A program made the position numbers and the translations under genes. A stretch of DNA of 64,000 nucleotides from Bilabrum cf. latius (lineage: Eukaryota), in NCBI GenBank assembly GCA_965178125.1, contig OZ237765.1, positions 62,001-126,000 of the forward strand. Reading direction: 5' to 3'. Of this stretch, positions 3,771 to 64,000 are shown piece after piece. Below the pieces are notes generated by a model. It saw only the letters and a program-made list of their open reading frames with translations. It did not search any database and was not told where the DNA came from. How positions within the stretch are numbered: the stretch's first letter is position 1; the number at the start of each line of letters is the position of its first letter.

Positions 3771-4703
3771 TCATGGCACGCCCGCCTTCCCTGGTCCGCT
3801 TCCGTCTTCCCCTTTCACCCACACGCAGGCCTCCACGCACACCTGCGCCCGATCAAACACGACCCAGCTGGCCCACGGCTCGGCCACCTCGCCCTCCGAC
3901 CCCGGCGCACTCGTCACGCGAGTCCACCGCCCTGGCCTGAGCACCCCACCAGAACCAGCCCCCTCTCCGTCTGCAAGCCTCCCCAGGGCCGCAGCTGCTA
4001 CGGCAGCAGAAACGGGCCCGCCCACAGGAAGCACCCCTGCTGCAGAGCCACTGGTCTGCATGCCCCCGCTGGCCCCCTCCGTGCCCTCCACCGCCGTGTC
4101 GCCGTCCTCCGCGTACCAATCGTCACACCACTCCGCGTCCTCGGATGGATCGGTGCAGCGCTTGCCCAGCCACATGAGGCTGTCGGCATCCCCGGGCGCG
4201 GCGCCCCGGGTGGTTCCGCAGAGCACAGGGGCCTCCCTCCCGAGGGCCGCGCGCACCAGCAGAAGCATGCACTCGTCACACCCCAAGGCCCCTGCATCCG
4301 CCAGCGCGCCCTCGGGCCGGTCGAACAACCTCAGCCCACGGGGACAGCCCCCCAGCCCGGTAAGGCCCGAGGATGCCTCACCAGGCTCGTCGATCGGAGC
4401 CATGGCACCGTGGGCCAAAACTGCCAGCTCCTGCCCCTGCCGCACCGCCGTCCACAACAGCCGAACATTCCGGGAAACGTCCCCTTTCCCCCCCTCCGTT
4501 GTTCCCTGGCGAAGCACAGCCTCGCTCCCCTTCGCCAGCCCTTCCCACCGCGCCTCTCCAGATCCGGATCCCGATCGCGCCCCCTGCATGGCCCACTTGA
4601 CTCGCAGGGCGCGCTGGAACGCGCTGAAGGCTGCGTGTTCCCCAGCGTGCCGGCAGCGGAAGGCACCGAGCACTTTCATTGCCTGTGGGCTGCTAGCCGT
4701 AAC

Positions 4704-4749
<46 letters not shown>

Positions 4750-6372
4750 GACAGACCTGTCCCCGCTGCATCAGGGGCAGGCGGCAGGGACAGGGACAGG
4801 GAGGCCTCCGGTCCCGCGCTAGGGGCACCTTCCTCACTCGTCACACCCACTGGCGCGCAGCACAGAGCGGCGATGGCCCGGCCCATGCGAGACCCAGGCA
4901 GCACGGCTCGCAAGGCGCGCCCTGTGGCCAGGCACAGCGCACTCGCAGGGGGGATGGACCCAGCGAGGTTCCCCTGCCGCCGGAGTGCAGCCAGTCGGCA
5001 GGCATGGGCCAGGGCAGGTGCAGACCACCGCCGCAGCAGCAGCAGAGAGCGCAACCCGCGGCGCAGGGATCTCGCGGTTGCAACCGGCGGCAGCTGTGTG
5101 TCGGGGACAGCCCTGGGCTTGAGCAGGGGGACGAGGCCGAGTGCCTCTCGCCAGAGGCGCAGGGCGGCGCGACGAATGCGGTGTGACGAGCGCAGCTTGT
5201 CGTCAGCCCTGTCCCCATCCCCCTCGTCTTCGTCCTCGTCGCCCTGGCCCTCGTCACACTCGTCACCCTGGTCCTCCATGGCCTCCAGCTCTCCCACGAG
5301 CGACCCCATGGACCGCATGGCGCCCTCCAGATGCACCTCCTCCACCAGCTCCAAGAGACCAGTCCAATCCTGCACCCAAGTCGGCTGGCTGGATGCACCC
5401 TCTATCGCGCCTTGCTATTCCCCCGACGTGCCAGCGGCGCCCTCGGCTCCATCGCCCTCCTCCTCCTCCTCTAGCATCGCATCAAAGGCCGCCTCGTCCT
5501 TGGCTGCCTGTCCCTCCTTCTTGGCTAAGACAGCCGCCTCGGGCCCGGGTCCCCGCATCCCCTCGGCCAGCAGCCCCCGCACCACGCGAGCCGGAGCACT
5601 GGCCCTCGCCATCAGCTGCTCAACGGACATGCGGAACGGGGGGATGCCATCCACGGGCGCGAGGCCCGGCATGCCCCCGAACAGCACCTGCCACTCTCCG
5701 TCATCTTCTTCATCTTCCTCCTCTTCACCCCCCTTGCCTTTCCGGCCTCCACGCTTCGATGCCGAGGATCCTGCTCGACCCCCCTTTCTCGCCTTCTTGC
5801 CAGTGGACAGCCGGCCCTTTCTCGCCGATTTTGCGCGCTTGGCAGGAGTCGGCGACCGTAGCATGTCCTCGAATTCACCCTCGGTGTCCAGTTGGCTTGC
5901 CTGCTCGGCACGACGGCGCTTGCGCTTGGGCTGCTTCGCTGGGGTCTCCGCGCCGGACTCATCACCCGAACTGCTTGCGGCACCACCCCTTTTTGCCAGC
6001 CTGCCTTTTCTCGGCTTCTTTGCACTAGCTGGGGCATCCTCTACTCGGTCATCGGCAGCCCCTTGAGCATTCGCGTACGCATCAGGCAAGGCTGCCTTGA
6101 TGGCAGGCTTGAACTTCTTGACTTCGTGTCGGCTCACTCCAAGGCGCTTACCGAGCTGCAATGCAAATTTAAACGCAATTTCAATGAAACACATACTTAG
6201 TATGCGACCCACATTATCCACGGTTAGGAGAGCAGATGCACTGGGATACTAATCTCACGGATTTCAGAAGCTGCTTGAATGTGATACTGCTCAGGTCGAC
6301 ACCGTCCGCATACTGGCTACTAATGAAGGCAAACAGATGCCTTTCAACATCCCCCTTCGTAACCTCAGACAT
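3771..6372 (-). CDS. Protein with N-terminal DEK-C-like domain and long low-complexity region; intron 6156-6258
   Basis: Exon 1 MSEVTKG...DLSSITFKQLLKS is joined by a GTGAGA...TTGCAG intron to exon 2 LGKRLGVSRHEVKKFKPAIK, giving a DEK-C pattern. A basic NLS-like stretch follows. In-frame TAG at 5415; stop TGA at 3771. Confidence 0.6.
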
Positions 6373-6484
6373 AATCGCGGATGGAAGGGGAGGCACCAGT
6401 TCAATTTACCTAGGAAGCTCAATATCGAATCAGTCTCTCGAATTCAAAAATTCGCTCGTCACACCAAAACTCAGACAATGCTTG

Positions 6485-6737
6485 CCTGACCTAAAGCATC
6501 TAGGCTACCGCCTATTCTGAGAGAAGCAAGAAGATAATCGGATTAGATCGACTGATCTGGTCCAATTGTCTCGCTATGAGGCTCTCACTTGGTACTATTG
6601 TATGCTTATTTGCTATTATTTGTGAGTGCCGGGGAGTCGAGCTCCCCGGTATAGTTACGTGCACTTTAGTGCGCTAGAATGAGGTATAACTAGAAGTGAT
6701 TGCACCTGACCTAAAGCATCTAGGCTACCGCCTATTC
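6485..6737 (+). repeat. Pair of identical 33-bp direct repeats (6485-6517 and 6705-6737)
   Basis: CCTGACCTAAAGCATCTAGGCTACCGCCTATTC occurs twice around a 187-bp intergenic spacer. Confidence 0.95.
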
Positions 6738-6777
6738 GTCGTGAACGTCCAGCCATAGCATGCTTCCAGGTCGTATC

Positions 6778-9700
6778 TCAGCCCATGGGTCTCCATGGCT
6801 CGGGCAACATGCCGCCGATCACCAGCGGATCCACCCACGCCTGCGTCTCCAGCGCATCCACCGACCCGCCCACCGGCACCAGGCCAGAGCCGCCCACTCT
6901 GCCGCCTACCAGCGCCCCGCCCGCCTTAGAGCCAGATGCACCGGACCCCCCTTTACGCCTCCCCGCCGCATCCGCCACGGGCCCCTCCCACGCCCCCTCC
7001 ACCCCCACGGCCAGCACCACACGGGATTGAGGCCGCAGAGCCACTGCCTCCCTCAGGCCAAACCACGCCCCCGCGAATGGCACGCACACCCCGCCCTTTG
7101 CCCCGCTGTTCCTCAGCCAGGCATCGTCCCGGGGACCCTCCGAAGTTCCTGCTGCCAGCCACACGCAGCTCCGATCGCGGATCGCATGCCTCACGGCAGC
7201 CTCCCCGGCCCCATCCGTCAGAGGTCCCCCCAGCCCCGGGCCCGGCTCCCCGCCCGTGGCCCCCCGATCATCGCCATCACGATGGTGCCCCGGGCCCAGC
7301 TCGCCCACCCTCGCGCACGGGTCGTCTTCGTCACGGCCCCTCCCCCGCATGACCGCCACAAGCGAGGCACCAGGGGTGCACTGCACTGCAGCACCCCCTC
7401 CCACCCCCTCCTCCCGCGGCCCCACTGCAGGCCCCTCTCCGAGACATGTCCCCCTGCAGTCCACAGTGAGGCAGTGCCCCAGCCCCAGCCCCGCCAGTCC
7501 ACCGAGCACAGCCGCATCCCCCGCCGCCGCCACCTCGAGGGCCCTCTCCACGGAGCTGCCGTCCCTCAATGAGGCACCCGCGATCCACCGGTAGGCCTGT
7601 CCCGCCGTGCCCTGGCCCAGACTGAACCCTGCTGCACTCGTCACACCAGAGGACCCTGTGCCCTTGCTAAGCTCGGGGCCCCCTGCCTCGGCTGCGGCTG
7701 CTCCTCCGCGCCTACCTCCACTCGTCACACCAGCGGACCCCTGCACGTGGGCGGCAGCCGCCAGCGCCCTTGCACAGGCAGGGTGCATGGCTCCCGTGAC
7801 TGCCATGTGCCTCAGAGACCGGAACAGACCACCTCTCCCGTCTCCACCTGGCCCTCCGCCCGACACTTCCTGCAGGTCCTGTGACAGCGCCGCACATGCA
7901 GCCCGTAGTGCCCTGGGCCTGTCCCTCTTTGCCCACCCAGGTGCGCTCCCACCCTCCTGCACCGCCACCCCCGCGCCACTGCCGGCCCCCTCGCCGTCCC
8001 CCTCGTGTTCCCTGTTGAGCAGAAGCGCGCTCCTCCTCTCCCCCAGCTGCTGCCCATGCAGCACACCCCCCGTCCCCGCCCCTGCCTCCCACTCCCCATC
8101 CGAGCAATCGGCGAGCAGCTCGCCCACCCCCGAGGACACCTGCCCCGATCCCGGCACAGGTCCACCTGCACTCCCGCTGCCACCCACCTGGGCGCCACCA
8201 GCAGCATCACCAGTACCGTCACCGTCGCTGTCGCTGTCGTCTTCCTCGGGGCCTTGCCCGCCAATAGGTGAAGCGGCATGGGCTGCCACTGCTGCCCCTG
8301 CTACCCCTTGGCCCGTCCCTGCTCCGGATCTTCCGCTGGGCCCAGTGCCGCTTGGAGCAGCCAGGTGTCGCCAGCCAGGCAGCGCGAGCAGCGGCGCAAA
8401 CTCAACGGATAGATCCCTCCAGGCACTCGCGCACCCATCGGACCTGCCGGCCAGCTGCCCCACCTGCAGTGCAGTGCACACGGCGCCCAGCCCCAGAGCA
8501 TCCCACCCCAGCCCAGCCGCCTCCTCCTCCTCCGTCGGCTCCCGCAGCGTCCGCCGCAGCAGCCGCACCCTGCCCCTGCCCGTGTCCACGCCGCCGCCAT
8601 CTTCACCTGACAAAGCACCCCCTGGCTTGCTTGTGCTCGCACCTGTCCCTGCCTTGCGTCTCCCAGCCCAGCTGCCGGCGGATGGAGGCTTGTACGCCCC
8701 TGTGCCTCCTGTGGTGGAGCTGCTAGCTCCCTTTGCTGCAGTGGCTCCTGCTGCACCACCATCACCTCCTGTAGATCTAGATGGGTGCAGCACACCCGCC
8801 GCGGGTTTGGCCATCCTCCTGAGCATGTCCAGCATCGCCTCTCCATCCATGTCCACAGCGGCAGTCACCTTCGCAAAGGCCTCCTGCCTTGGCCGCATCT
8901 CGAGCGACCTCAGCAGAGGGAGGCAGGCGGCCACGAGCATGGTCCGGGGGTGCATCCTGTGTGCCCCGCTGACTCGGAGGGTCCTGAGGGGGCTCCCCGC
9001 TAGTCCATGCCTCAATTCGATCGGAGAGGTGCTGGCGCTCAACCCCCTTGTGGGGTCACTTGCCCCCGCTGGACCCCTGCCCCCACCCCGGGGGCTCCGC
9101 GGGGCCATCGCCGGCAGGGTCACCCTCACTTCCGCTGTCTCCTTGGGGTGGCAAGCCATCGCCACGCGGCCCGCCACTCCCAGTGACCGCCCCACGGTTA
9201 GGATGGGGGACGCCCTAAGTGACCCCACGGTGGGGGGGAAGGACAGGTCCAGGTGCTCCAGGCGAGGCACGGCGCACAGCAGTGCAGACAGGTCCACAAC
9301 ATGTCCGTTGAGCTGCACAGTGCTCCCACCGCTGCCCCCTGCCGTGGCGCCTTGCACCCACATGCGCCGCATAGTCTGCCGCAGCACCCCCACGGCCACG
9401 GGGCCCCCAACTGGGGAGGGGCCTGCCTCCTCCCGGGGAGCTGCGCGGGTGCCTGTAACGCACCACCTGTGACGAGTGCGCGGCGCCGTTACTGCCCCAC
9501 CAGCCCCAGCTCCATCCCTACGCCCGCCCAGATCGATTCCGTCTGCCCCCCGCCCCGCCGCACGGTGCTCGTCTTCATCATCCCCACTGCCCGCCTCATC
9601 TTCATCGCTACTGCTGCTGCTCAGCGCCAGCCCACGCATCAAGCCCCCCCCCTGCCCACCCCTCCCTGTACCTGGCCTGCCGCCCCGCCCAGCACCACCC

Positions 9701-11916
9701 CTCCCCTCAGATGCAGGCCCCTTCCCCCTCGCCCTCCCGCGCCTGCCACCGCCCCCCTCTGGCCCTCTCGCGCCCCGGCCACGCACGGCCCCTAGCCCAA
9801 GCGCCTCCCTCGCACTCGTCACACGCCCTGCCATCTCTTCTACGCCCGCCTTGTTCCCCTCCAGAGGATCCTCGTCCATCGCCGCCCCTGACAGCAGGAC
9901 ACCCGCCGACTCGGCCGCCCCCGGCAGATGCAGCGGCCCGGTCTCCAGCTCGAGCTCGAGTGCCCGCAGGGTGCACCAGGGCCCCTCCGAGGAGACGTCG
10001 CCCGTGGCGGTGTGACGAGCGGCACGCTGCCCCAGATCGACGCACGTGGGCAGCAGCCCGCCCCCTGCCTCCGCCACGGCACACGCACTCGTCACAGCCC
10101 TAGGGTCCAGGTCCTCGTCCTGCAGACACCTGGCCCTGCACCGCAGCACGAGGAGCCTCTTGAGGGGCCGCAGCAGCTCCAGCACCGCGGCGAAGGACAG
10201 GCACCGAGTGGTCTCCGCCGGGAGAGCCAGCGCCCGCAGGCACTCGCATAGGCCCGTGGTCACCGGCGCCAGCATGTCTCGCACCAGCAGCTGCGTGCGC
10301 CCCACGGCCCGCCCAACCTCCCTGGGCCCGCACAGCCGGGGGTCCAGCGCCTCCGGCCCCCCTCTGAGCCCCTCCCCGCCCACTGTGACGGCCCACCCAC
10401 GCACGGACACCAGCGGATCCCCGCTGTCCGTCTCACTCGTCACACTCATCGGCTGGCTAAGGTCGAGGTACCGCAGCCCCGCACCCCCCCCTGCACCCCC
10501 CCCTGCCACGCCAGCCCCCCTTCGATGCAGCGCCTGCACCAGCGCCCGCGCCCCCTCGGGGTCCAGCCGGTGCCCCCGCAGATCCAGGGCCCGCCAGCGC
10601 CGGCCGGTGCCCTCCCCCCCCAGCACGAGGTCCGACACGTTCTCTATCCCGAATCGGTTGCAACCGCTCCCGTCCTCCGCCTCCGCGGTTGCAACCGCCG
10701 CCTGCCCCGCGAGCGCCAGCCTCCATTCCCTCAGCTCCCGCACCAGCCCATCATCCGCCGCCTCTCCGCCCGCCGAGGCACGCAGCGCCAGGCGCTCCAC
10801 CCGCATGGGATCGTCCTGCTGCTGCTGCTGCTCCTCGCCTTCACTCGTCACACCCTACCGCCGCACCGTCTCCTCCACGGTCTCGAGTCGCAGGGCAGCC
10901 GAGCGAGGCACCACCCTCGCCCCCGCCAGCCGGAGTGCCCCGAGCTGGGGAGCCCCCTTGCGGAAGGCGCGGATATCCACGGCCCCGCAGCCCCGCGCGT
11001 CCATGGCCCGCAGGCCTCGGGGAACAGCGACGCCCCTGAGGGAGGCCAGCGAGGCGCCATGCGTGCGCCCCAGCAGCAGCACCCGCAGGCCGCGCCAGGC
11101 CCCCAGCAGTCCCCAGTCCCAGGGGAGCCCACTGGAGGAAGACAAAGAGGAAGAGGCGGATTGGGCAAAAGAAGAAGTCGAGCCAACGATCCCGCTGCCG
11201 CTTGCAGCATTGGCCTGCCGCATCGCCCTCCCCATTCGTTGCGCCCTGCGGGCCATGTCCGAGCGTCTAAGCTGCTGCTGGGCCCGCCTCGCGTCTGCAT
11301 GGATGCTCTTCTCCAGCTTGCTGCCCGGGGGCGCCCTCGTCGAAGCGTCGATCGACTCGGCGCTCTGGGCGCCGGTGGGCAGCTAGGCGCCGCGCATGTC
11401 CAGGCACAGGAGGGCGTCCCGGGCGGATTCGCCTGCGAGAGGGTGTTCGGTCCATTTTAGCTCCGCGGCAGGTCCCTGCTCCCGGCCGCCGGCGTGCACG
11501 TGCTCGTCGTCGGCCGGCTCCCGGGGACCTCCCACCATGCGAGCGAGCAACGACCCGAGCTCCTCTTCCCCGAGCGACGCACCCTGGAAACTGAACCCAT
11601 TTGCATACGGGAATGTAATTGGTGAGATTTCTCGAGTCAAGCGCGACAGTTCGTCTGATGGGATGGAGTCCAGGCGCAGGGACTTGCTGGCGTGGCACTA
11701 CTAAAAGCTGCGAAATCCAGCCCACGATGCACCTTGCAGCGGCTTTCGCGCCTGAACAAGGTGCATCTAGTCGGTCGAAAGGCTATCCAGGTAGCCTGTT
11801 CGAACCGTGCGCCTCAAGTAGGCCCTGGAATCTTCCGCTATGAGGCCTGCCATCCCATCAAGTAGAAGCTCTTCCAGCGATGCACCACCGGATGTCTGCA
11901 CAAAGCACTCCGCCAT
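6778..11916 (-). CDS. Large (about 1710 aa) leucine-rich-repeat-like protein with Gly/Ala/Ser-rich insertions
   Basis: One frame runs from ATG 11916 to TGA 6778 with TAGs at 11767, 11701, 11698, 11383 and 10855. Scattered LxxLxLS motifs (WRALDLRG, LRYLDLSQ, LEHLDLSF, LRTLRVSG). Confidence 0.6.
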
Positions 11917-12451
11917 AATTGAGTCAGATCGATTGAATATTGTAAAAGTTCAGTTGTCACTTCTTGAGAGACTCAACAACAAAGAAATGGTTGTGAACCT
12001 GGCTCGCATGGATCGGGCATTCGAAACCGGAATCAGCCCGAGGCATACGGCGCCCCGGGCCGCCGCCACTGGCAGCGACAAACACCGTGCGGCGCTGCAA
12101 ACACCGCGTTAGTCCACCCGCACTGCTCCTTGCAGCCCACCATACTACTCCACTCCGCCCCACCGAGCTCCCAGCTCCCACAGGCCATGCCAGTTGGGTG
12201 CCTGCGACCCCTGGTGCGTCAAGTTGTCCCGCTGCTGGGCCGAGGGCCGTCTCTCGGGCTACCCAGCGCTGCGTGGTCCCAGGCCCGGCCAACTCATGCT
12301 GCCATGCACGATCGCAGCTGGCGGTGACTTGGTGGTGTACAGCACTTCTGAACCTCGGCTGGATCCGAGACATCGGGGGTCTCAGCTGAGCTTCACGACC
12401 TAGCTGCACCCTGCCGGCCTGGAGGCGGTCTGTCTTATGCCGGTACAGTGA

Positions 12452-22542: not shown

Positions 22543-22575
<33 letters not shown>

Positions 22576-23487: not shown

Positions 23488-23657
23488 GTCAAAGTGGCCC
23501 AAAAAGATAAACCCCACTTTGGCACCACGCGAGGAACTTGCCCGTGCAGCGGAACCAGACAGTGTACGAACGCGCGGCGCCAAGAGCTTGGATTCACGAC
23601 AATCTTGCCCATTCGAAATCGCAGATTGATATGGCTATCCCATGAATAGTTTAACGC

Positions 23658-49175: not shown

Positions 49176-49292
49176 CCCGAAGATCAGCTTCGACTTAATG
49201 GCCCGTCCTCGGCCGGGACAGCCTTGGCCAACTCGCGGTTGCAACCTCGCAATGTCATGGGGGCAGGTGTTTGCCTCCCACATACTGAGAAC

Positions 49293-50301: not shown

Positions 50302-52147
50302 ATGCTGCAGTAGTTGGCCTTACTGGCTTCTCTTAGCTTGTATGCTCATGCCAGGGACGATGGACTGGTGTCGGCTCCCCTCATGGTGAGTAGGGGCCAG
50401 AAACCCGCATCAACTAACTGCAAGTGCCAGTCTCCGTAGCTTGGTACGCGGCACCTTGCCTATGCTTTGGAAGAAAAACACCTTATTAATGCATATACAC
50501 TGTAATGGCATGCACGTTGTATACTATATACTGTTGCACGTGAATACTGCTGTTCCGATCTTCGCAGGGCTGGAGCTCTTGGAATTTCTACCACAGGTCC
50601 ATCAGTGATGCCCTATTCCGATCCACCGCCGATGCGATGGAAACAAATGGCTTGCTTACTGCCGGCTACAACGTCATTGCCATCGACGGTGGCTGGTGGG
50701 AGGGTGTCGACACAGGCCACGCAGTCCGGAACTCGACCGGTTACATGGGCGTCGACGCGAAGAAATTCCCCTACGGCATGAAACCGATGGTTGATTACCT
50801 GCACGGTAAAGGATTCTTGTACGAGCACTACACGGATTCGGGCGTCCATTTCTGCAACCGGGATGAGCCGGCCTCGTACGGGTACGAGCACCAGGATGCT
50901 CAGCTCTTCGCGAGCTGGGGCGTGGACGGTGAGCGAGCATCAGAGAGGAGACGAGCAGCTGTGTCCTTGCTTTCCATCCGGCTGCATCACTCTGGTCGCG
51001 CTCAAGATCCAGGCTACTGCACGTGTCATCATCCCCCTCCCTTCCCTCCCCCTCCCCTCCGCGCAGGTCTCAAGCTGGACGCGTGCGGGTCCAAATCGGA
51101 CTAGTGGAAGGACATCCTGACCAAGTGGGACGCAGAGTTCAAGGCGGCCAGCGGAACCTACGGAAGGAACATCTGGATGAACGAGTGAGTGTGTCGAGTG
51201 CGGCCTCGCGCAAAAGCTTGTGTTGTGTGGGGGGCCAATTCAAGCGGTAGCAATTGTGTGTGCACTGCATTGCATGCTGGGAACCCCTCGCAACTCTGGC
51301 CATCTCCCACCATTCCTCTCCTGCCCACCCCCCCCCCCCCGCCTCCAACCCGCATCAACCCCCCCCCCCCCCCCCCAACCCCCCCACCCCACCCCCCCCC
51401 TCCTTCCACAGCTGCCATAACGGGTGCCAGTACGACCTGGGCACGTACCAGGACTGGTGCCCCCAGCTGGCCAACGTGTGGCGCGCCACCAAGGACATCC
51501 AGGACAACTGGGACTCGATCATGTTCAACGTGCACGCAATGGCAGGGCACGGGCACATCCAGGCGCCCGGCCAGTGGGCCACTCCTGACATCCTCGAGGT
51601 GGGCAACTCCCTCTCTGCGGCAGAGGACCAGACCCACTTCTCCCTGTGGGCCATCACCTCGTCTCCCTTGCTCATGGGGAACAACATGTCCGCCATCACG
51701 CCCGAGCTGGTCACGATGGTCACCAACCGAGAGGTCATCCGGGTGGACCAGACCTACTGCGGGAACGGGGGCGACCTCATCCAGAAGTTCCCCAGCACGA
51801 GCACAGAGGTGTGGGCCAAGCCCCAGCCGGGGGGTGCGGTGGCGGTGGTGATGGCGTCTGTGGGTGACCTGAAGGAAGAGACCACCGTGAGCATCCCCCT
51901 GTCCAAGCTCCCCTTCAACACCCCCGGGGTATGCGGGGACAAGGCCCTCGAGGAACACCCCCTGGGTGGGGTCCCCCTGCAGCAGTGGGCCGCACACGAG
52001 AAGAACGGGAGGAACGGCGCCGTGGTGCGGCAGGCAGGTGTGCGGAACCTAGTGACCCACCAGTTCGAGAGCGTGGTGACGGGCAACGTGACCTGCAAGG
52101 TGCAGCAGCATGGGTCGTGCACTCTGCTGGTGACACCCGTGGCATGA
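50302..52147 (+). CDS. GH27 alpha-galactosidase; exons 50302-50385, 50568-50928, 51067-51184 and 51412-52147
   Basis: Signal peptide, DDGLVSAPLM|GWSSWN, IDGGW, KFPYGMK, FASWGVD|GLKLDAC, WRATKDI, PDILEVGN and HFSLWAITSSPLLMGN. Three GTGAG...CAG introns. TAGs at 50311 and 51102; stop TGA. Confidence 0.9.
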
Positions 52148-54133: not shown

Positions 54134-54412
54134 GGCCGGCAGAAAATGCGTCGATCAAGCATTGCCAACCGTTTCGAGTTCCGGAATGGGTGACGAGCGA
54201 GGGCTAGTAGTTGGATGCAGGCTGACTGGCTGTTGCAGGGTGGAAGGCGCGGTGCACATGCTGGAAAAGAATAATACATGGCGTTTGCAGCGTGGGCCTT
54301 AGCAAAATGTCCGAATTCAAGGGCCCCCCACCGCTCGCGGCCTCCGATCCACGGCTCGCCGCTAGCACAGCTTCGCGCCTGCCATCGCTGCCCTGGCCCG
54401 CCCTTTCACTCG

Positions 54413-55894
54413 TCACATAATGATCTTGCCCACCTCAAAGCAGTCCGCCTTGATGCCCTTGTGCGGGAGGACGATCGTCCCCTCCAGCGCCACCTCGGTT
54501 GCAACCGCCACGTCCTCCCCCAGCACACTCTTGCCCGCCACCCGGGCCCACGCCCCCACCTTGGAGTCCCACCCCACGATCGAGTCCTTCACCACCGCGC
54601 ACGCCCCCACGTGCACGCCCCCTAGGAGTGTCGCCCCCGACACCCGCGCCCCTTTGCCCACCACGCAGTCGGGGCCCACCACGACATCGGGCCCGACCTT
54701 GCAACCTTCCTCCAGAGCCGCGGAGGGATGCACCAGGACGTTCCCCACGATCCTCGGGTCCGCCCCCCCGTCCGCGAGGGCCGCTGGCGAACGTTCCTTG
54801 AGGCTCGCCAGGTGCATCCCGACACCGGCGAGGTAGTCCTTGGGCTAACCGATGTCCATCCAGTACCCCTTGAGCGCCATCGAGTATAGCTCCCCGTCGG
54901 CCGCCATGGCGGGGAAGACCTCCTTCTCGATTGAAGTGGGTCTGGATGGGATGCGGTCCAGCATGGAGGGAGAGAACAAATACAGGCCCGCGTTGATCTC
55001 GTCCCCGACGAACTCCTTGGGCTTCTCCACGAACCTGTCGATCTTGCCCTCCGCGTCGTGCACGACCACACCGTACTTGGACGGGTCCTTGACCTTGGTC
55101 ACGCAGATGGTCCCCTGCTTGCCGTGGGCCTTGTGGAAAGCGAGCATCTCCTCCAGGGGATAGTCGCAGGTCACGTCCGAGTTGAAGACGAAGAAGGGGG
55201 CGTCAGGCTCCCCCTCCGCGACCAGGTGGGCCCGTGCCAGCGCCAGGGGCCCGCCCGTGCCCATGGGCACCTCCTCTTCGGAGAGCGTGACCTTCACCTT
55301 GCACTGCGAAGGAAAGGAGAAGATACGGTGATAGAGTAAGAGACGTAAGTGAATACAATAGAAGTAATTATCATCTGGGGAGGCTATTGCGTGGCGTGCA
55401 AGCTGCCAATCAGCGATACAAGCGAGCACCGAGCAGCCGCCCCTCGAGTCGCACAAGAAACTCCCTCGCGGAAACCGGCGATACGTATCGCCGGAAACTA
55501 CGAGTAGCAGAGCCTGACAAGCGCGTCATGAAATGATGTAGCTATACTGCAGGCTATATGCATATCATAGAGGCCAACACGTCCTGCTCCGGGCAGATAA
55601 TCCGCCAAGATGCGCTTGCGCGTTGCATCAGTCAGTTGCCAGAACACGCGGGAAACGGCAACTACTACACGCAAGCGATCTCACAGTTTCCTCAATCTCC
55701 TTCAAAACAGCTACCATTGCGTCGGGCTTGAAGCCGACGGCAAGCACAACCTCGTCAACGCCAACTGCAGCAAGTGCCTCGATTTGGTGCATCACAATCG
55801 GCTTGTTGCAGAACTCTACGAGTGGCTTTGGCTTCGTGAAGGTCAGTGGTCGCAACCTTGTACCAAAACCACCAACAAGAATGAGTGCTTTCAT
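54413..55894 (-). CDS. GMPPB: Mannose-1-phosphate guanylyltransferase (GDP-mannose pyrophosphorylase); intron 55304-55684
   Basis: [69 protein letters not shown], hexapeptide repeats and a VLPHK...IIM terminus. GTGAGA...TCGCAG intron; stop TGA. Confidence 0.95.
55475..55494. repeat. Perfect 20-bp palindrome in the GMPPB intron
   Basis: CCGGCGATACGTATCGCCGG equals its own reverse complement. Confidence 0.9.
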
Positions 55895-56065
55895 CGCTAA
55901 TGAGTCTTTGACGGCTGCACTTGTGGGCTGAAACGCTTGGCCGGCTCGCGCGGGCTGGCACTCATCACAGCATTTCAGAAAGCAGATTTCCACCGTGGGA
56001 CGGCCACAAACCTGAGGTGCTACGGGCAATATGTGCCGTCGATAAATTTGTGTGAGTGTGCCAGC

Positions 56066-58765
56066 ATGAGGCCATGGGCGCGAATCGTATCGCCTCGAGA
56101 CCGTGGCAAGAATCCGTATCCATCGGCTCTGAAGAGCTCTGGGGGGTAGCAATTGGATGGCGAGGCCGCCCCAAGCACTGCAATATGCTGTGTTAAATAC
56201 ACCACTGCTTCGGACCGTACGGGTGGTTTGCAATCGGGAACAGACGACTCTGTCACTCTGTCAGTGGCTGTCGGGGATGAAGATGGCTACATTTGGGCGT
56301 GCCAGCCGGCGAGCCGGTCCCATGCACTGGAACCGTTCCGCGCGCACATGGCACCTGTATGTGGCGTTGAATAGCTGGACTCGGAGCAGCTGCCGTGCGC
56401 TGCGGGCAGCTTTGTGCTCGCCTCGAGCGGCAGAGATGGCGAATGCTCGGTTTGGCGCTGCCAGGCACTTGCCCTGGGGCAGCTGCCGGAGGGACGGCCG
56501 CAGGTGCAGCAGATCGTGCGGGTTCGTAGTGCTATTGGCTCCTTCTGCGCCGCTCGGTTCCTTGCCTGGCCGGCCCCGATTCATCCCGCGAGTGTGACAG
56601 AGAAAAGTGCCCAGGCTCGGGCTCGGGTGCTCGTGGCGGCACCGGGGTGCGGGGAGGGCGGTGCCTTCCTGTGCCTGTGCGAGGAGGAAAGCGAGCAGCA
56701 GGCAATGGGTGGCAGTACAGGTGTGACGAGTGAGAGCAAGTCCCAGGGAGACGGGGAAGGGGCTAGGGGATCAGATCCCTGGGCCCAAGGGGCCAGTTGG
56801 TCGCAAGCATGGGGCTGCTTGCTGGGCCCACCGGAGGCACCCCCGGGGGATATCGCTGCGGAGGCACTAGGCATGGACCGTTTGAAGAAGAAGAACAAGA
56901 AGAAGAACCGAAAAAAGAAAAAGCAACAGGCGGGACTGATGCATCTGCAGGGGCTCGAGCCTGCACCCGGCAGCGAAGAGGAGGATGAGGAGGACGACGA
57001 ATAGGACCCGGACGACGCGGGCGGCTCCCCGTCCTCGTCAATGCCCGGGGAAGCGATGCTGATGCACATCGACCTGGTTCCGCAGTTGCGCGGCGCCCTC
57101 ATGATAAGGTCCTACGATGGTGGGGTGGTCTCTTGCGACACGATTGCGATCCCCGGCGTCTCAGGTGCATCGCAGGGTGGCGCAGGCACGTCCTCCGACT
57201 TCCGTGCGCCCGAGATGGGCAGGAAGACGGTGTCGGCGCGCGCCGCCAGGTGTTCCGTGTTGTGCACTGCCACCGCCCCTGCGAGGATGCTGGGTGCACC
57301 GCACGGTGGTGGGACGCGGCCGTTCTTGGTGGCCTGCGGGACGTCCTCCCGGGTGCTCTCCTTTTTGGTGCTTAGGATGAAGGCGGGGAGAGGCATCCAG
57401 GGTGCAGGGGCTGGGACAGGTGGGATCGAGGGTGGCCCGGGGTTGTTGAGGACAGCGAAAAAGACTGCATCGGGGGGCACGAGACCCCTTGTTGTGGAGT
57501 TGGGTGTGGATGGAGGTGTGGATGGAGGTGGAGGCGTCCATCGGGAGAGTGCCAGTTCCAGTGCCCCGGCCCCGGCCCCGACCTCTGCAGCTGGATTCGG
57601 CAGCAGCAGCAGCATAGGCAGTCAGTCCGGGCCCCTCGTTCCCGAGAGCATGTGCCTCGGTCTCGCGCTGCAGCTGCCCACCAAGGGTATCGCTGAGGTG
57701 AAATGGATCCCGGAGACAGAGGGCGGCGATGCGATGGGGAGGAGGACGGGCAGCGCGGCTGGACACTCGTCAGGTGCGGGTGCAGGCGCTTGGGTTGAGG
57801 CTGGGGCTGTTTAGCACGATGATGTCGCGGGGCATGGCAGCAGCAGCGGTCCCCGCTCGCTGCTGGGCGTGGCCTGCTGGGATGGGACCCTGCGGCTGGT
57901 GCGTGCCTGTGTGACGAGTGCGAGCGACGAAGAGATGCAGGCGCGGCGGCGGGGAGTGTCCCTCCAAGGGGGGCTGCTTGAGGAGGGGGGTCTTCAGACC
58001 AAGGCCAAGGGCATGGGCAAGGGCAAGGGCAAGGTGAAGGGGTGGATGCCCGAGGCCCTGGGCCCCTGGGAAGTGAGGGCGAGTCAGGTGATGGTACTCG
58101 GGGCAGCGGCACCGCATGCTGGGCTCATGCTGGCAGGGGCTGCCGCTGCTGCCGCTGCTGTCGCTGCTGCCGCTGCTACCGCTGCTGGTGCTGCTGGTGC
58201 AGGGGACAGGCCCGGCCCCGGCTCTCGGTTGGCGCACGAGGATGGTGCGCCGGTGGGAAAACGATAGCTGGTGGATGGGGCAGAGGCGGAGGCAGTTGGA
58301 CCAGCCAAGGCCGATGGCATCGGGGCCAGCGCTATGATGAGTGTGAGAAAAACCGGAATCAGCGAGCAGCAGGTGTCCGCCCAGCCGGATGCCGGGCAGG
58401 GACAGCAGCAGGAGCAGGAGCAGGAGCAGGAGCTGGCCGTGCTGGCAGAGGAATTCGGAATCAAAAATCTGAACGCAGGAGGTCTTCTCCGCCTGTCCTC
58501 TGCCAGGCGGAGGGCGGCTGTGGCCGAGGCGGTGGGGCGGGGCACCAACCGGGCGGGGGGGCTGCTTGCTGCGGCCCCCAGCAGGGAGGCCCAGGCGGTG
58601 GGCTGGGACCCCGTCTCTGCCTCGGCGGGGCCCGTGCATGCCGGGGGTGCGACTGGGCTCGGCGTGACGATTTCCAGCGGTGTGATGAGTGGTGGGGGTG
58701 GCGGTGTCGTGCTCGCGGCGGGGGACAAGAGCGGCGCCGTGACGGCATGGCTCCCTCTGGGGTGA
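56066..58765 (+). CDS. WD40 protein, GNB1L/ASA1-like (about 900 aa with insertions)
   Basis: [52 protein letters not shown] and [13 protein letters not shown]. One frame with TAGs at 56147, 56372, 57002, 57812 and 58265; stop TGA. Confidence 0.7.
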
Positions 58766-59055
58766 GCGAGGTGTGATGAGTGGTGGGGGTGGCGGTGTCG
58801 TGCTTGCGGCGGGGGACAAGAGCGGCGCCGTGACGGCATGGCTCCCTCTGGGGTGAGCGAGGTGTGATGAGTGGTGGGGGTGGCGGTGTCGTGCTTGCGG
58901 CGGGGGACAAGAGCGGCGCCGTGACGGCATGGCTCCCTCTGGGGTGAGCGAGGTGTGATGAGTGGTGGGGGTGGCGGTGTCGTGCTTGCGGCGGGGGACA
59001 AGAGCGGCGCCGTGACGGCATGGCTCCCTCTGGGGTGAGCGAGGTGTGATGAGTG
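58679..59055 (+). repeat. Tandem repeat of four 91-bp units plus a partial unit, duplicating the 3' end and stop codon of the WD40 gene
   Basis: Units start at 58679, 58770, 58861, 58952 and 59043 (partial). They are near identical, with one C/T difference in unit 1. Confidence 0.95.
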
Positions 59056-59148: not shown

Positions 59149-62100
59149 TCAGAACCCGATCGTGGTGACACCAGCGCGGCTGCTCCTCCTCGAGTTCGCA
59201 GAGGAGGCGCTGACGGCGCTGTGCCTGGAGGCCTGCCCGCCATGATGGCGACCCGCCGCATGGTGACCCGCCGCATGCTGGTGGCGCCCCCGCTCCCCTC
59301 TGCGACCGCTGTGGCCCCCACCCTCAAGCCCAGCTCCAGCCCCAGCCCCAGCCCCAGCCCCGGACCCTCGAGGCCTCCTCGATTCCATGACCTGCTGCCG
59401 CCTCGACGGCTCCCTCCGTATCCTCAGCGACAGCACGTCAGATCGCCCCTCCCTCGCGCGGTGGTACAACGCCCGATCATCTTCATCTTCATTTTCGGGC
59501 CGAGCAGTCCCCAGAGCGGCAGGGGGCAGACTGCGGGCGCCGCCCGAGACAGACGATGAAGATGAAGAAGCGAACATGTGCGAGAAACTGCCCTATCTGA
59601 TGGGAAGTCCCGGCTGCTGCAGCCCTCCAGACACTGCACTGTGGTGCCCTGCCCCCCGAAGGTGCTGCTCCCCGCGCACCACAGCTGCGCCCCACTGGGA
59701 GCCTCCATCCTCCTCCTCCTCCTCCTCCTCCTCCTCGTCCTCGTCCTCGTCATCATCCCCGCTCCCCGACGAGTCCCCGTCATCAAGCGCGCCATCATCA
59801 TCAGATCTTGTCGTGCTACCCTAGTGCCCCCCACCCTATTCTTGTTCCCCATGCCCTCCACGAGACAGCTCCACCCGCCTCCTCTTACTGGCCCTGGGGC
59901 CGTCCTCCCCGCCCCCACTAGCCCCCGTCTAGTGGCTCTCCTGGGACGCCTCCGCGCCCCACTCGTCATCCTCTCCCGTGCTGGCTCCCACCGCATCCTC
60001 GTCCTCATCCTCATCCTCATCATCATCGTCCTCCTCCTCCTCCTCATCCGCTGACACCACCTCGCCCCTGGAGTTGACCTCCATGGCCTCACCGCGGCTC
60101 GACTCCGCCCCCATATCCGCAAAGCTAGCCAGCGAATGGGAGTGGGAGGCGCCTGCACCAGCGATGGAGCGCTGCCGCACGCCTCCACCAGCACCCTAGC
60201 TACCCCCCTGAGTCTTGTTCCCTGGGCCCATGGCCCGGTGCATGGCGCCCCTCACCCTCGCCCTGGTGGACGCGACCCCGCTCTCCAGCGAGTCCACCAG
60301 CTCCTGCCTCTCCCGCGCTCGGATGGCTCCTGCGGCCGCTTCCAGGGCGCGCTCCTCTGGGTCTGCAGACCCCGGGGAGACTACCCGTGTGACGAGCATG
60401 GGCCTGATCCTCACCCGCCTGCGCTTCCTGCCGTTGCGCAGGATCGACCGGGGTCCTCGCTGCTGCTGCTGCTGCTGCTGCTGCTCTCGCTTGTCAGCTC
60501 GCTGCGACAGTTCTGTGCCCGAGCCCCTGTCCACTCTCGTCCCAGTGCCTCGCACCTTCCCGTCCTAGTCAGCGTACTAGCCGTGTTCCCCAGGAGCACG
60601 ACCCGCGTGTTCCCCAGGAGCATGACCCGCCTGGACTGGCGCCGAGCTTGCACTCTCCACTGGCAGCCGACGGAAGGCTGCAGCAGGCTGATGACCAATA
60701 CCACGACCATGACCATGACCATGATCTTGCAGCGCATGCATGTGACCGTGAGTGCTGCCACCATCGTGCATTGCACCCCCCGCACTTCCGACCACACGTG
60801 CCTATACCTCGCTGTTCCTGGTTGGTACCCCAGACCTGCTAATCCCAATGCCCGCCTGCACTGCCAGCGCCTGCACCACCGGGTCTGGCAGCCTCACCAG
60901 CTGCAGGCCGCCGCCCCATGCCGGGAGCCAGGCCCACTGCGGGAGCGTGCTGGGAGCGGTAGCAACGCGAGTGGTTGCAGCTGCATACACTGATGCTGCT
61001 GACGCCGATGATGACGAAGCAAGGGCAGCTTGCACACTTCCGGCACCTGCATTGGCCTGTGGTGAGAGCGCCGGTACGCGCAACGCCGCAGAGGCAAGAT
61101 GAGTGTCAGGGTGCAGCCCACGGCGGTGCAACACACCCGCTGCAGTAGGAAGTGCATCCCGTGCTTCCCTGGCCCTTGCCCTGCTGGCCTGCAGCGCCGC
61201 TCTCACGCTCGCTGGGCTGTGGGGATCCCCCTCTGTCCCCCACCGGCGCAGCGGGAGCCCCTCCCCACGGTGGGCCACCCGTTGTTCCCTGGGACTGCGC
61301 AGTCCCCTGGATCTCGGCTGTTCACCGGGGCTCCGGGGCCCCCTCCTTGAGCTGGCTCTGCTCCACGGGGATCTAGGAGGAGAGGGGAGCGTGGGCTGCT
61401 CCTCGGGTGCTGTGGCTGCCAGCCCGTCGGCTGACCCCTGCGAGTGTCCGTCCATGGTGCCGCGGGCTGAGCGGCTGTCTGCGTCATCCCCGGCCAGGTT
61501 ACTTGAGAGGCCATGCTCTCGATCGGGCGTGACGAGACGCTGTTCCCTGGCCCGGCCTAGTGCAGCGGCACCTCCTGCAGCACTGGGGCTGGGGCTGGTC
61601 CTGGTGCTGCTGCTACGACTCGCGGTGGCGCTTTCTGCTGCGTGAATGCTGCTGCTGTCAGATCTACCAGCTGCAGTGGCCTCAACTGGACTGGTGGCAG
61701 TTGCTGCGCTGCTCGAAACCGCCCTGGCTGGCAACGTCTGGCTCTTGGGCTGGTGATCCGTTGGCGAGGCACCGCCACTCCCTTCTGCACCCGTGCCTGC
61801 TACACCACTGGCAGCACCCTCACTGTTAGCGTAAGCGTGATCGTCGCGCTTTGGCTCGCTAGCCTGCTGCTGCCTTGCAGTGGCAGTGCGTTGATCAGCG
61901 CGCCCGGGCGAGACCTCCTCCCCAGATGCGGCAAAAGCCTCGGCTGCTTCTGAAAGCGGACAAGAATCAGCTGCTGCCTCGATCGGTTTACCGGCCTTCA
62001 TATCTGCTTCAGCTGCCTCGCCGCTGGCATCAAGAGGGACGCGGAGCTCGCCATCATCCCCCTATTCGTCGTGGCCATCGTCGCGCATGGACACTTGCTC

Positions 62101-64000
62101 GTCAGTACCCCCGCATGCACTGGTGTGCCTGGGGTCCTCATCCCGCGCATGCCCTGGCTCATCCATCTGGTCCTTCTTGTTATTGTCCTCGTCCTGCCGG
62201 ATATTGGAAGCTGCAGCTTCCTTATCTTGCTCTTCATTGGTCCCAAATGCGTCACCAGCTGCCTACAGCACCTCATTGCGCATGGCCTGCCCCTCGACTC
62301 CGCCTTCGATAGAGCCTTTGTGCGCCATTCGGCTCGTCTCATCACGGCCTCTGACCTCCTGCTTCTTCCCACCGTCCTCGTCCCCGTCCTCGTCGTTGTC
62401 CATCGGTGCCTGTCCCGAACTGGCGCTCTCATTGGTACCACTGCCACCGGCCTCTTTCTTGACTGAGGTCGAGCTGCTAGCCCCAGCCCGAGCTCCAGCA
62501 CCAGCACCAGCTCCAGCTCCAGCATCACCTGTCGAGTTGAGCCTGCACCTGAACTCAGCCTCTGGCCTCACCACCCGCTCCAGCCACGCCTCATGCGAAT
62601 CCAGCCAATTGACATGCCCCCCCTCAGCCCCCCCCTGAGTCCCCCCCTGAGTCCCCCCCTCAGGCCCCCCCGTCAGCACCGCCGTCTCCCCTCGCCTCAC
62701 CCTCCCGATCATCCCTGCCACGCTCCTGCTTACCCCGCCCGCATCCTGTTGTTCCCCGGTTGCAACCATCTCCCATAGCATAGCCACGTAACCCCCAGAC
62801 CCTTGTTCCCTGACTAGCCACTCCACGGTGCTGCTCGCATCCAGGAGCACCTGGCGAGAGGCATCGCTAGGGCTGGCAACGCGGTTCGCCGCCCCGCAGA
62901 GCAGCAGCTGCTGCGGACGGCCCGCCTGCGGAACCGACCGGATGGCGAGCGCGGCGCCGGGCAGTGCCCCGATCATGGGGGCCCACTTGCCCTTGCCCAG
63001 CTTCCTGGGTATCTCCGAGAGCGGCTTGGCGAGCGCCACGCTCAGTGCCCGCCTGGGGGGCACACCATGCTTGAGGGCCAGGGTGCGGGCGCGGGCGGAC
63101 GCAGGCAGCACGAAGATGACGGCGCGGTCTGGTTTGCAGGGGGGCAGCGGCCTGAGCGGCTGGGGGGGTTGCTGGTGTGACGAGTGCTCGGTCCCTTGTC
63201 GCATGCCGGCGCTCGGCCGCTTGAGGGGCGAGCCGAGCGCGGCGGCGGCTGCCTCCACAGCGGCCTCAGCGGGATCCGTTTCTCTGCCTGCTCCGCCTGC
63301 TCCGCCTGCTCCGCCACCGTCCATGATACCACCAGCGTCTTTGGCGCTGTCTTTCTGTGCACCCATGCTCTTCTCGCTGTCGGGCGAAGGACCGGATGGT
63401 GAACCGCCCGTTGCTGCTTTCTGCAGGGCGGGCCTCGTCTTGGCGCCCTGATGCACCTGGGCCTGCACCTGGGCTTGAGCCTGGGCCTGGGCCTGGGATG
63501 CAGACTCGGCTGGGCGAGCTGCAGCACCATGCAGTGCACTCGCGGTGGGAGAGTCGGCGGGAGGAGGAGTGAGTCCCGAGAAGGAGCCCATGCCTGCTCC
63601 AGTACCGCGCGACCCCTCGGTCTCGGTCCCAATGCGCAGCCCCTGCCGCTTCTCGTGTCGCTCTCCTACGGCCGGCACTGCGGCCCGCTCCTGCACCGCA
63701 ATGCGATGCATCGTCTCACGGCCCGGCAGGCTGTCCTCCATCGCAAGGGCACTGTCGTGCATTGCAGACTGATGCGGCCCCGATGCCCCCACGTTGGGGG
63801 GAAACCCCAGCAGGGAATCCCCCGGGATCAGCCCCCCCTGCCCACGAATGAAAGCCATGAGGCTGTCTTCGCCGGCCCCTGAGAGCGAGCCCAGACTGGC
63901 TCCATTGGTATTCGTCACACCCGGCCCCATCTCGTCCTTGTCCTGGTCCCAGGGCCGGCTGGTCCCACCCGCCAGAGAGTGGGGCAGACCCGGGGCACCG
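59149..64000 (-). CDS. Large low-complexity protein, 5' end outside the window; possible Cramped/TKI1-like domain
   Basis: One frame runs from the right edge to TGA 59149 with TAGs at 62263, 62062, 60802, 60577, 60565, 60196, 59929, 59821 and 59593. The segment VIFVLPAS...LKHGVPPRRALSVALAKPLSEI...KW resembles my recollection of the CRAMP1/TKI1 conserved block, which is a weak match. Confidence 0.55.

Follow-up and report, generated by a model that had tools for sequence, protein, structure and literature searches.

In bacteria, hyperabundant words located within genes (uptake sequences, HIP1, and Chi) have revealed machineries of DNA uptake, repair, and recombination. Uptake sequences, that is, the uptake signal sequences (USS) of Pasteurellaceae and the DNA uptake sequences (DUS) of Neisseriaceae, are 9 to 12 bases long, occur once per few kilobases, spread by molecular drive, and form dialects among relatives. 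HIP1 of cyanobacteria (GCGATCGC) is an 8-base palindrome that is over-represented hundreds- to thousands-fold and is found mostly in genes, and a link to site-specific methylation and repair has been proposed. The causes accepted or proposed for HIP1 and the uptake sequences are either drive, through biased uptake or short-patch repair linked to a methyltransferase, or a function that depends on density, as opposed to a function of individual sites. Here, we analyze a 12-mer denoted W1 (CACTCGTCACAC on one strand and GTGTGACGAGTG on the other) and two further words, W2 and W3, in 64,000 nucleotides of contig OZ237765.1 (GenBank assembly GCA_965178125.1, Bilabrum cf. latius; forward strand, positions 62,001 to 126,000), hereinafter the window. 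The data comprise this 64-kb window and about 24 kb of related metagenome loci, the latter ascertained through W1 itself.

A preliminary description of this DNA had likened W1 to HIP1, Chi, and uptake sequences and had suggested that it may bind an abundant chromatin, replication, or recombination factor, a role that we treat as putative. With respect to HIP1 and the uptake sequences, the analogy holds for behavior, namely, density, in-gene copies, and the frames and places where copies are tolerated, whereas the polarity of Chi is not found. W1 resembles an uptake sequence in being a dispersed, strongly over-represented word with unrelated flanks, and in occupying tolerated frames and weakly conserved protein segments, where it shapes tripeptides, with a copy in a NECAP-like gene to the contrary. 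The uptake sequences belong to naturally competent bacteria, in contrast to the eukaryotic host considered here. To our knowledge, nothing like a drive through biased DNA uptake exists in a eukaryote, so that another drive (biased repair or conversion) or selection has to be assumed for W1. In-gene copies, tolerated frames, and unrelated flanks are shared with HIP1, and W2 is also palindromic; the differences are the eukaryotic host, the non-palindromic W1 and W3, the length of 12 to 13 bases, and the coexistence of at least three words.

Three other classes of elements were compared as well. Chi and the FtsK orienting polar sequences (KOPS) of bacteria are over-represented oligomers that are read by a DNA-tracking machine and oriented with replication, whereas the orientation of W1 follows the local gene strand and matches the expectation from codon usage. 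Introner elements and miniature inverted-repeat transposable elements (MITEs) of Micromonas, Aureococcus, and other protists have 50 to 200 bases in common, possess inverted ends as well as target duplications, and are spliced out. Dispersed copies inside genes are common to both cases, those elements numbering thousands in G+C-rich, compact protist genomes, but only 12 bases are shared here, and the copies are retained in a spliced contig. The periodic A/T clusters (PATC) of Caenorhabditis germline genes are degenerate and intronic and are thought to mark genes against silencing. Like PATC, the words analyzed here look like a DNA-level, orientation-free signal across gene bodies; unlike PATC, they are exact and exonic, and no periodicity was seen.

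Abundance of W1

Both strands of the window together contain 13 exact copies of W1, all at the positions reported previously, against an expectation of 0.01, the value that our recalculation also returned. None of 100 dinucleotide-preserving shuffles contained 13 copies. When one mismatch is tolerated, the number of matches rises to 37, compared with 0.34 expected and 3 in the richest shuffle; with at most two mismatches, it is 53 (13 exact, 24 one-mismatch, and 16 two-mismatch). Five of the 24 one-mismatch copies belong to a single 91-bp tandem array (58679-59055); these are the only tandem copies among the 37, so that W1 does not fall into the class of tandem or peptide repeats. The existence of near-perfect copies had been recognized before, but their number, put at about 17, was too low. 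Among the 15 examples given then, 8 were placed exactly (3908, 5181, 10010, 10086, 16170, 25535, 34032, and 54407), 3 were displaced by one or two bases (6455, 9468, and 18895 instead of 6453, 9467, and 18894), the one at 5250 is really a copy at 5248 plus a second copy at 5257, and 3 carry two mismatches (19437, 46311, and 60387).

Codon-aware nulls were computed on gene models in which TAG is read as a sense codon, an inferred reading on which all statements about frames and sense strands in this work rest. These nulls are simple, and the codon null includes W1's own codons. Independent codon usage over 15,720 codons predicts 0.0045 exact copies. In 200 runs each, a synonymous-codon shuffle that kept the proteins gave a mean of 0.24 (maximum 2), a codon-order shuffle gave 0.00, and a pooled dicodon chain gave a mean of 0.09 (maximum 1); in none of these nulls did any run attain 13. 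Within the frames, 31 copies with at most one mismatch were observed, compared with mean values of 2.64 (synonymous), 1.04 (dicodon), and 0.21 (codon order). The excess of W1 is real and not due to chance. The preliminary description had considered that it might vanish under a dicodon-preserving null or be confined to the window; it persists under all these nulls, and dispersed copies recur in other contigs.

Frames, spelling, limits, and strand of W1

All 13 exact copies are located within inferred coding frames. Nine are read as xGT GTG ACG AGT G (V-T-S), three as TGT GAC GAG TG (C-D-E), and one, in antisense, as CAC TCG TCA CAC (H-S-S-H), in agreement with the earlier observation that the word is translated in different frames and strands. 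The third sense frame, which contains TGA, harbors no exact copy; the single exception is the one-mismatch copy at 54407, where the TGA serves as the stop of a gene. That one copy overlaps a stop codon and another (6453) lies upstream of a gene, as previously noted, is correct (Table 1). The window encodes 18 V-T-S tripeptides (3.4 expected), of which 13 use the spelling GTGACGAGT, AGT being a minor serine codon (156 of 1339). C-D-E is spelled TGTGACGAG in 4 of 5 cases, and the synonymous third positions within W1 are fixed. Because a single spelling dominates both V-T-S and C-D-E and the excess beats the codon nulls, W1 dictates the peptide and not the reverse, which upholds the earlier view of a word at the DNA or RNA level rather than a peptide motif.

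These observations also bear on the simplest explanation, that the words are a by-product of base composition, codon or dicodon bias, or a favored G-V-T-S peptide. The sense strand is indeed rich in G, and low-complexity segments often contain V, T, S, D, and E. Nevertheless, every null gave between 0.0045 and 0.24 copies against the 13 observed, the synonymous positions are fixed, W1 is found in two different frames and on either strand, in one case ahead of a gene and in another spanning a stop codon, and the word set recurs in other organisms with 53-62% G+C. The compositional explanation is refuted by the codon nulls, and we assign it a probability close to nil.

Conservation of W1 stops at 12 bases. 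In an alignment of 33 exact or one-mismatch copies, from which four of the five units of the tandem array were excluded, each column outside the word carries at most 0.34 bit; the preceding base is G in 23 and the following base is C in 17 of the 33. Because of this sharp limit, W1 is not a transposon, short interspersed nuclear element, introner, or extended repeat. Single mismatches occur at positions 1, 2, and 11 in 15 of 20 cases, the core TGTGACGAG being nearly invariant; the few changes within it are mainly CpG transitions, with the TpG variant present in the tandem array. Such a graded profile resembles that of a recognition site rather than the outcome of uniform decay.

On the sense strand lie 12 of the 13 exact copies. 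Among the in-frame copies with at most one mismatch, 24 are sense and 7 antisense, that is, 23% antisense compared with 24% under the codon null; the sense strand is G-rich, and W1 contains six G and one C. Both strands are enriched in the 8-base core, with 22 sense occurrences vs 1.60 expected (14-fold) and 12 antisense occurrences vs 0.37 (32-fold). The orientation of W1 flips with the gene strand: at 25334, within a gene on the plus strand, the copy is reversed relative to its neighbors. Together, these sequence comparisons suggest that W1 has no strand requirement beyond protein tolerance. Because the strand bias equals the prediction from codon usage, W1 would act or arise as double-stranded DNA. 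Of the 33 copies, only 2 lie beyond the inferred frames, a single one of them upstream of a start, so that W1 does not belong to the class of promoter sites.

Gene setting, a spliced intron, and TAG as an apparent sense codon

The window has a G+C content of 60-70% and encodes a JmjC/cupin protein, a TMTC-like O-mannosyltransferase, NECAP, a 13-finger C2H2 array, guanylate kinase, alpha-galactosidase, DGAT2, and a PYROXD2-like oxidoreductase. Among named sequences, the closest homologs of the latter come from Cafeteria, with an identity of 42% in the search table and 46-47% in alignment A1, a similarity that does not place the organism. A form of the locus joined across positions 6156-6258 is present in contigs of sequencing runs X1 and X2 and not in the deeper runs X4 and X5. 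The skipped piece is, on the minus strand, an AT-rich GTGAGA...TTGCAG unit that lacks the words, and its removal fuses an ATG-started first exon in frame with a long minus-strand frame. X1 and X2 are treated here as the source of transcript-derived contigs, the kind of the runs being a guess (RNA for X2 and "probably DNA" for X1). The spliceosomal GT..AG intron and the JmjC, TMTC, NECAP, C2H2-array, and PYROXD2 genes identify the host as a eukaryote. Its genes appear to be intron-poor, with G+C-rich DNA being exonic and introns and spacers AT-richer; G+C is 58% outside the inferred frames and 67% inside.

The intron-removed X1 contig is colinear with window positions 4756-6155, with no letters lost, and keeps the W1 copies at 4835, 5181, 5248, and 5257 and one W2; because this contig without the intron retains them, these four W1 copies are not spliced out. 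This contig argues against an explanation under which cryptic or unconventional introns (5' GTGTGA..., 3' ...CAG) use the words as signals and the protein insertions described below are unspliced or alternatively spliced sequence. W1 does begin with GT and W3 contains CAG, copies are found in segments that homologs lack, and inverted pairs such as 10010/10086 would make GT...AG units. In addition to the retention of the words in the X1 contig, itself subject to the guess about the kind of run, the true intron is AT-rich and word-free, the frame is open and codon-like across the copies, and the NECAP copy lies within a conserved strand. The cryptic-intron explanation is thus largely refuted and, in our judgment, highly improbable. 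A variant of it, a tiny 21-base GT..AG intron at 34116, was rejected given that spliced X1 keeps four copies and that the NECAP copy is in place.

All eight in-frame single stops that split same-frame open reading frames (ORFs) in the window are TAG (Table 1), with TGA being about twice as common as TAG in the window sequence. TAG-open frames of 1616-2766 codons contain neither TGA nor TAA. The TAG at 34585, in the PYROXD2-like gene, aligns to the residue that directly follows an invariant Pro within a conserved block; the alignment continues in frame to both sides, and the lengths are equal. The TAG at 5415 is unchanged in the X1 contig. In related loci L004, L027, L039, L068, and L071, whole-locus frames are broken by TAG alone. 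Thus, TAG is apparently read as a sense codon in this host, and the TAG-open frames were used as gene models because long frames whose G+C pattern is coding-like are broken only by TAG and because of the alignment of TAG 34585. As the amino acid encoded, Gln or a hydrophobic residue (for instance, Leu) is suggested by internal repeats of a lectin-like gene (39320-41110) and by the homolog columns. Scans of the window for tRNAs and Rfam families returned no match. A UAG-only reassignment is exemplified by the insect-dwelling rhizarian exLh, where UAG encodes Leu and UAA is the main stop (PMC5304391). A literature search on UAG reassignment revealed nothing linking exLh to the host organism.

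Two further words

When the 9- to 12-mers of the window were ranked by over-representation after masking of tandem arrays, the top of the list consisted of three families, W1, W2, and W3. W2 is the 12-base palindrome CGGTTGCAACCG, that is, (C)GGTTGCAACC(G), with 9 sites compared with 0.06 expected; W1, by comparison, is not its own reverse complement. Seven of the nine W2 sites are in coding frames; in a single case, at 49237, the site is flanked by the probable starts of two divergent genes. W3 is CAGGGAACA, with the long form CAGGGAACA(ACGG); the 9-mer has 22 sites compared with 0.47 expected, and 6 of these are the 13-mer CAGGGAACAACGG. Coding frames harbor 21 of the 22 W3 sites, 18 in sense and 3 in antisense. 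In two cases (15500 and 61541), an antisense W1-like CTCGTCACGC or TTCGTCACGC comes within 4-10 bases after W3.

The strand distribution of W3 raises the question of whether the words function at the RNA level, with RNA-binding proteins or small RNAs using them as exonic sites in export, stability, licensing against silencing, or control of translation, so that selection would favor them on the sense strand of mRNAs. Such a role, which we consider distinctly unlikely for the words at large, fits W3 better than W1. The strong sense preponderance of both exact W1 and in-frame W3, exceeding the codon null in the case of W3, is in its favor, as are a W1 copy in sense orientation in a probable 5' leader, the persistence of W1 copies in the spliced X1 contig, and the scarcity of W1 outside frames. 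Conversely, the antisense share of W1 is that predicted from codon usage, with the core more enriched in antisense than in sense, and the W2 palindrome would have the form usual for sites of dimeric DNA-binding proteins and would not be long enough to make a stable RNA hairpin. Furthermore, up to nine copies per gene without positional conservation are unlike known mRNA elements.

The word set in other DNA

When metagenome contigs were scanned for a pair of W1 copies within 30 bases, 121 stretches were reported; 120 of them were stored as loci. Most of these are tandem arrays, (GTGACRW)n heptamer runs, or chance matches in DNA of all compositions; they contain neither W2 nor W3 and have no relation to the words of the window. 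Eight loci stood out by extra exact W1 copies with unrelated flanks: L004, L005, L027, L039, L041, L044, and L068, which belong to one contig-name series, and L071. Their G+C content is 53-62%, and L039 contains five W1 copies in 2.1 kb. Only after these eight had been singled out were W2 and W3 looked for, and W2 and/or W3 were found in 8 of the 120 loci, 7 of them preselected and the eighth being L105. In the resulting set of nine (the eight preselected loci and L105), CAGGGAACA is present in 7 and GGTTGCAAC in 5, compared with 0 of the 111 other loci in both cases. The three words and the TAG habit thus go together in a lineage.

Among prokaryotic genome and viral contigs, the same two-copy pattern yielded 73 loci, none with W2 or W3; these are runs of (GTGACRW)n heptamers or tandem arrays. 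Short GTGAC-based heptamer runs (…GTGACATGTGACGAGTGACGTGTGACGAG…) were observed at unrelated places in many Verrucomicrobiota and Chthoniobacterales genomes (Table 1). The bacterial heptamer runs are chance pattern matches unrelated to the eukaryotic words. Searches of the window genes against the related loci with tblastn and blastn identified no orthologs; a lone 24-base blastn match is a GGCAAT microsatellite. In full-text literature searches, the word strings were matched only by primers and unrelated sequences, and no report of the three words was found.

Placement of the words in proteins and their turnover

Nearly half of the W1 copies (16 of 33, within 3908-10853) reside in two low-complexity genes. 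In the PYROXD2-like gene, both W1 copies and the single W3 copy are in segments inserted relative to all seven aligned homologs: W1 at 34116 belongs to a 7-residue insertion missing from all seven, and W1 at 34032 belongs to a variable, longer segment. The NECAP copy (28163) is a counterexample to placement in weakly conserved segments. It is part of the conserved first strand of the domain, which is at most one residue longer than in the solved NECAP1 structure; because it adds at most one residue, W1 is also written in place. A relative, P0121 (77% identity), has insertions at both W1 places of the PYROXD2-like protein, with other residues and no V-T-S; at the place of 34032, it reads L-D-V-D. 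Given that P0121 has the insertions without the word, the insertions are older than W1, and word positions turn over quickly.

These placements are central to the main rival explanation, under which the words are scars or micro-insertions, that is, excision footprints of DNA transposons, very short 5'-truncated retro-copies, or short patches copied from an abundant template in double-strand-break repair, tolerated only in frame in unconstrained segments. All three word copies in the PYROXD2-like gene fall in lineage-specific insertions, of 7 to ~18 residues, and a perfect palindrome such as W2 is a possible form of footprints that keep both transposon ends. Copies are often in low-complexity segments and in close pairs 9, 21, and 21 bases apart, and the 13:24:16 ratio of W1 copies with zero, one, and two mismatches fits the decay of once-perfect copies. 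Several observations, however, do not conform to this scenario. The flanks are unconserved, with no ragged 5' or 3' edge and, as judged by eye only, no target-site duplication; the 64 kb yielded no full-length element with the words at its ends. The mismatches are concentrated at the edges (15 of 20), unlike in neutral decay. The NECAP copy replaces conserved residues, and in P0121, the segment corresponding to 34032 is of similar length but consists of different residues, which indicates writing without insertion, whereas its insertions lack the word and hence precede it. On balance, we consider the scar explanation unlikely.

A candidate mechanism

Our preferred explanation, to which we attach somewhat less than even confidence, is that each word is a recognition site of a sequence-specific factor and that its density is kept by selection or by biased repair or conversion. 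Under this scenario, W1, W2, and W3 would be double-stranded-DNA signature words of one eukaryotic lineage, each read by a putative sequence-specific DNA-binding or DNA-modifying factor, and their high density across gene bodies would be maintained either because it is useful or through a drive, whereby a bias of site-specific repair or gene conversion turns near-matches into the word. New copies would appear in both orientations, and selection at the protein level would purge the TGA frame and the hydrophobic or Cys-rich readings in constrained domains. As a result, copies would accumulate in poorly constrained, low-complexity segments, imposing V-T-S and C-D-E. From the comparison with bacterial systems, we infer a protein that reads the words and either drive or selection as the force behind their maintenance. 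A more specific version, namely, a lineage that reads UAG as an amino acid and in which at least three words of 12-13 bp are continually written over coding sequence by a repair or conversion drive, reshaping its proteins (excess of V-T-S, C-D-E, and R-E-Q), is a possibility that we regard as doubtful.

Several points weigh against the recognition-site explanation. The mechanism, with its putative reader protein, modification, or transmission bias, is drawn by analogy. DNA outside the frames makes up 27% of the window and contains only 2 of the 33 W1 copies; a drive that worked purely on DNA would be expected to reach these non-coding parts as well, the lower G+C content there (58% vs 67%) reducing the expectation. 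The sites are not conserved in the relative, which speaks against a site-specific function and leaves only drive or a function at the level of density. The coding frames depend on the apparent sense reading of TAG, and the codon null contains the word's codons. Finally, the 18:3 sense bias of W3 exceeds the crude codon null (0.216:0.161). W3 could have an RNA-level role; the absent antisense frames would encode F-P and C-S-L, which acidic low-complexity segments may not tolerate.

Catalogue of word copies and other features of the window

Table 1. Copies of W1, W2, and W3, in-frame TAG codons, and heptamer-run loci; positions refer to the window unless a locus is named
Feature	Position	Strand	Setting
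W1 exact	4270-4281	+	Sense GTGTGACGAGTG of minus frame 3774-6254, C-D-E-C
W1 exact	4835-4846	+	Sense, minus frame 3774-6254, G-V-T-S; retained in spliced X1 contig
W1 exact	7635-7646	+	Sense, minus frame 6781-11949, V-T-S
W1 exact	7719-7730	+	Sense, minus frame 6781-11949, V-T-S
W1 exact	9813-9824	+	Sense, minus frame 6781-11949, V-T-S
W1 exact	10434-10445	+	Sense, minus frame 6781-11949, V-T-S
W1 exact	10842-10853	+	Sense, minus frame 6781-11949, V-T-S; immediately behind in-frame TAG
W1 exact	25334-25345	-	Sense, plus frame 23655-26885, C-D-E-C
W1 exact	28163-28174	+	Sense, NECAP-like minus gene, C-D-E-C in conserved first domain strand
W1 exact	34116-34127	+	Sense, PYROXD2-like minus gene, V-T-S in 7-residue insertion
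W1 exact	56721-56732	-	Sense, plus frame 55904-58762, V-T-S
W1 exact	57909-57920	-	Sense, plus frame 55904-58762, V-T-S
W1 exact	63175-63186	-	Sole exact copy antisense to its frame (59152-63999, minus), H-S-S-H
W1, one mismatch	3908-3919	+	Sense, V-T-S
W1, one mismatch	4117-4128	+	Sense, C-D-D
W1, one mismatch	5181-5192	-	Antisense to frame 3774-6254; retained in spliced X1 contig
W1, one mismatch, overlapping pair	5248-5268 (5248-5259, 5257-5268)	+	9-base slip of GTGACGAGT; sense, C-D-E; in X1 contig
W1, one mismatch	6453-6464	+	AT-richer DNA, ~80 bases upstream of ATG 6372 of minus-strand DEK-C-like spliced gene
W1, one mismatch	9467-9478	-	Antisense to frame 6781-11949
W1, one mismatch	10010-10021	-	Antisense to frame 6781-11949
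W1, one mismatch	10086-10097	+	Sense, V-T-S
W1, one mismatch	16170-16181	+	Sense, frame 13423-21720, V-T-S
W1, one mismatch, pair	18894-18926 (18894-18905, 18915-18926)	-	21 bases apart, antisense to TMTC-like frame, unrelated spacers
W1, one mismatch	25535-25546	+	Antisense to plus frame 23655-26885
W1, one mismatch	34032-34043	+	Sense, PYROXD2-like gene, V-T-S in variable segment
W1, one mismatch, pair	45251-45283 (45251-45262, 45272-45283)	+	21 bases apart, sense, frame 43926-49331, V-T-S; one member is CpG-to-TpG variant of W1
W1, one mismatch, CpG-to-CpA variant	48296-48307	+	Sense, V-T-S
W1, one mismatch	51189-51200	-	Upstream of alpha-galactosidase alignment start (~51425); probably intron or non-coding, may be a chance match
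W1, one mismatch	54407-54418	+	Own TGA (54413-54415) is stop of minus ORF 54416-54844
91-bp tandem array, 4.1 units	58679-59055	-	Every unit with CpG-to-TpG W1 variant CACTCATCACAC
W2, 12-base palindrome CGGTTGCAACCG	5075-5086	.	GGTTGCAACC at 5076
W2, other GGTTGCAACC sites	10656, 10687, 22750, 39155, 45847, 49237, 54497, 62758
W3, 13-mer CAGGGAACAACGG	34532-34544	-	In PYROXD2-like insertion
W3, other 13-mers	4496, 17315, 46994, 47009, 61279
W3, example 9-mer sites	4500, 17319, 34536, 46998, 47013, 61283
In-frame TAG	5415, 14785, 15496, 19807, 34585, 46110, 53462	-
In-frame TAG	57002	+
Heptamer-run loci	L126, L128, L129, L133, L138, L141, L152		Genome contigs
Further heptamer-run loci	L164, L165, L167, L168, L179, L189, and others		Genome contigs

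The W1 pairs 18894/18915 and 45251/45272 have a spacing of exactly 21 bases, or two helical turns, which are too few cases to judge. Inverted pairs (5181/5248, 9467/9813, 10010/10086, and 25334/25535) were considered as possible MITEs, and this idea was rejected: such pairs are expected at the local density, and their flanks and interiors are unrelated. A telomere-like or 9-base-unit origin, with the 12-mer as 1.33 units of GTGTGACGA, is supported only by the slipped pair 5248/5257 and was rejected as well; pure GTGTGACGA arrays in other contigs belong to unrelated organisms.

The C2H2 gene (30834-32666, minus strand) encodes about 13 fingers from an 87-bp tandem repeat of 12.9 units with 85% matches. 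The units vary mainly at the usual DNA-contact helix positions, which is the pattern of fast-evolving finger arrays. A link between this array and the words was considered and is unsupported, as a reading of the contact residues by hand revealed no triplet run matching W1, W2, or W3. An AT-richer intergenic stretch (~6484-6735) is bounded by a 33-base direct repeat GAATAGGCGGTAGCCTAGATGCTTTAGGTCAGG; its depth in DNA-like runs is ~2.5-3 times that of its neighbors, with a sole base difference seen (6633 G>T), and it is probably a multicopy element. Two further tandem repeats are a coding 30-bp repeat of 27 units (37225-38071; GAGGAGGAGGAGGCAGCACGCAAGCAGGCC, read as E-E-E-E-A-A-R-K-Q-A) and a perfect 46-bp repeat of 6.1 units (30277-30557). 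C-rich ACCCCCCC... repeats (51327-51425) directly precede the alignment start of the alpha-galactosidase (frame residue 165) and are probably the 3' part of an intron, so that some introns would be C-rich rather than AT-rich.

Implications

We know of no eukaryote with exact 12-mers in coding exons at a density of one per 2-5 kb. Beyond the single word reported in the preliminary description, the present analysis shows that W1 is one of at least three co-occurring words and adds a word set common to other uncultured organisms and the apparent use of TAG as a sense codon. In practical terms, the three words combined with in-frame TAG are a cheap signature for the retrieval of contigs of this uncultured lineage from metagenomes, and standard gene callers split its genes at TAG. 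If a factor reads the words, an oligonucleotide pull-down would give a handle on a chromatin, repair, or recombination system. If the words spread by drive, a DNA-level process would override protein sequence in a eukaryote, and should the repair or conversion drive prove true, the words would be the first eukaryotic counterpart of the bacterial uptake sequences and HIP1.

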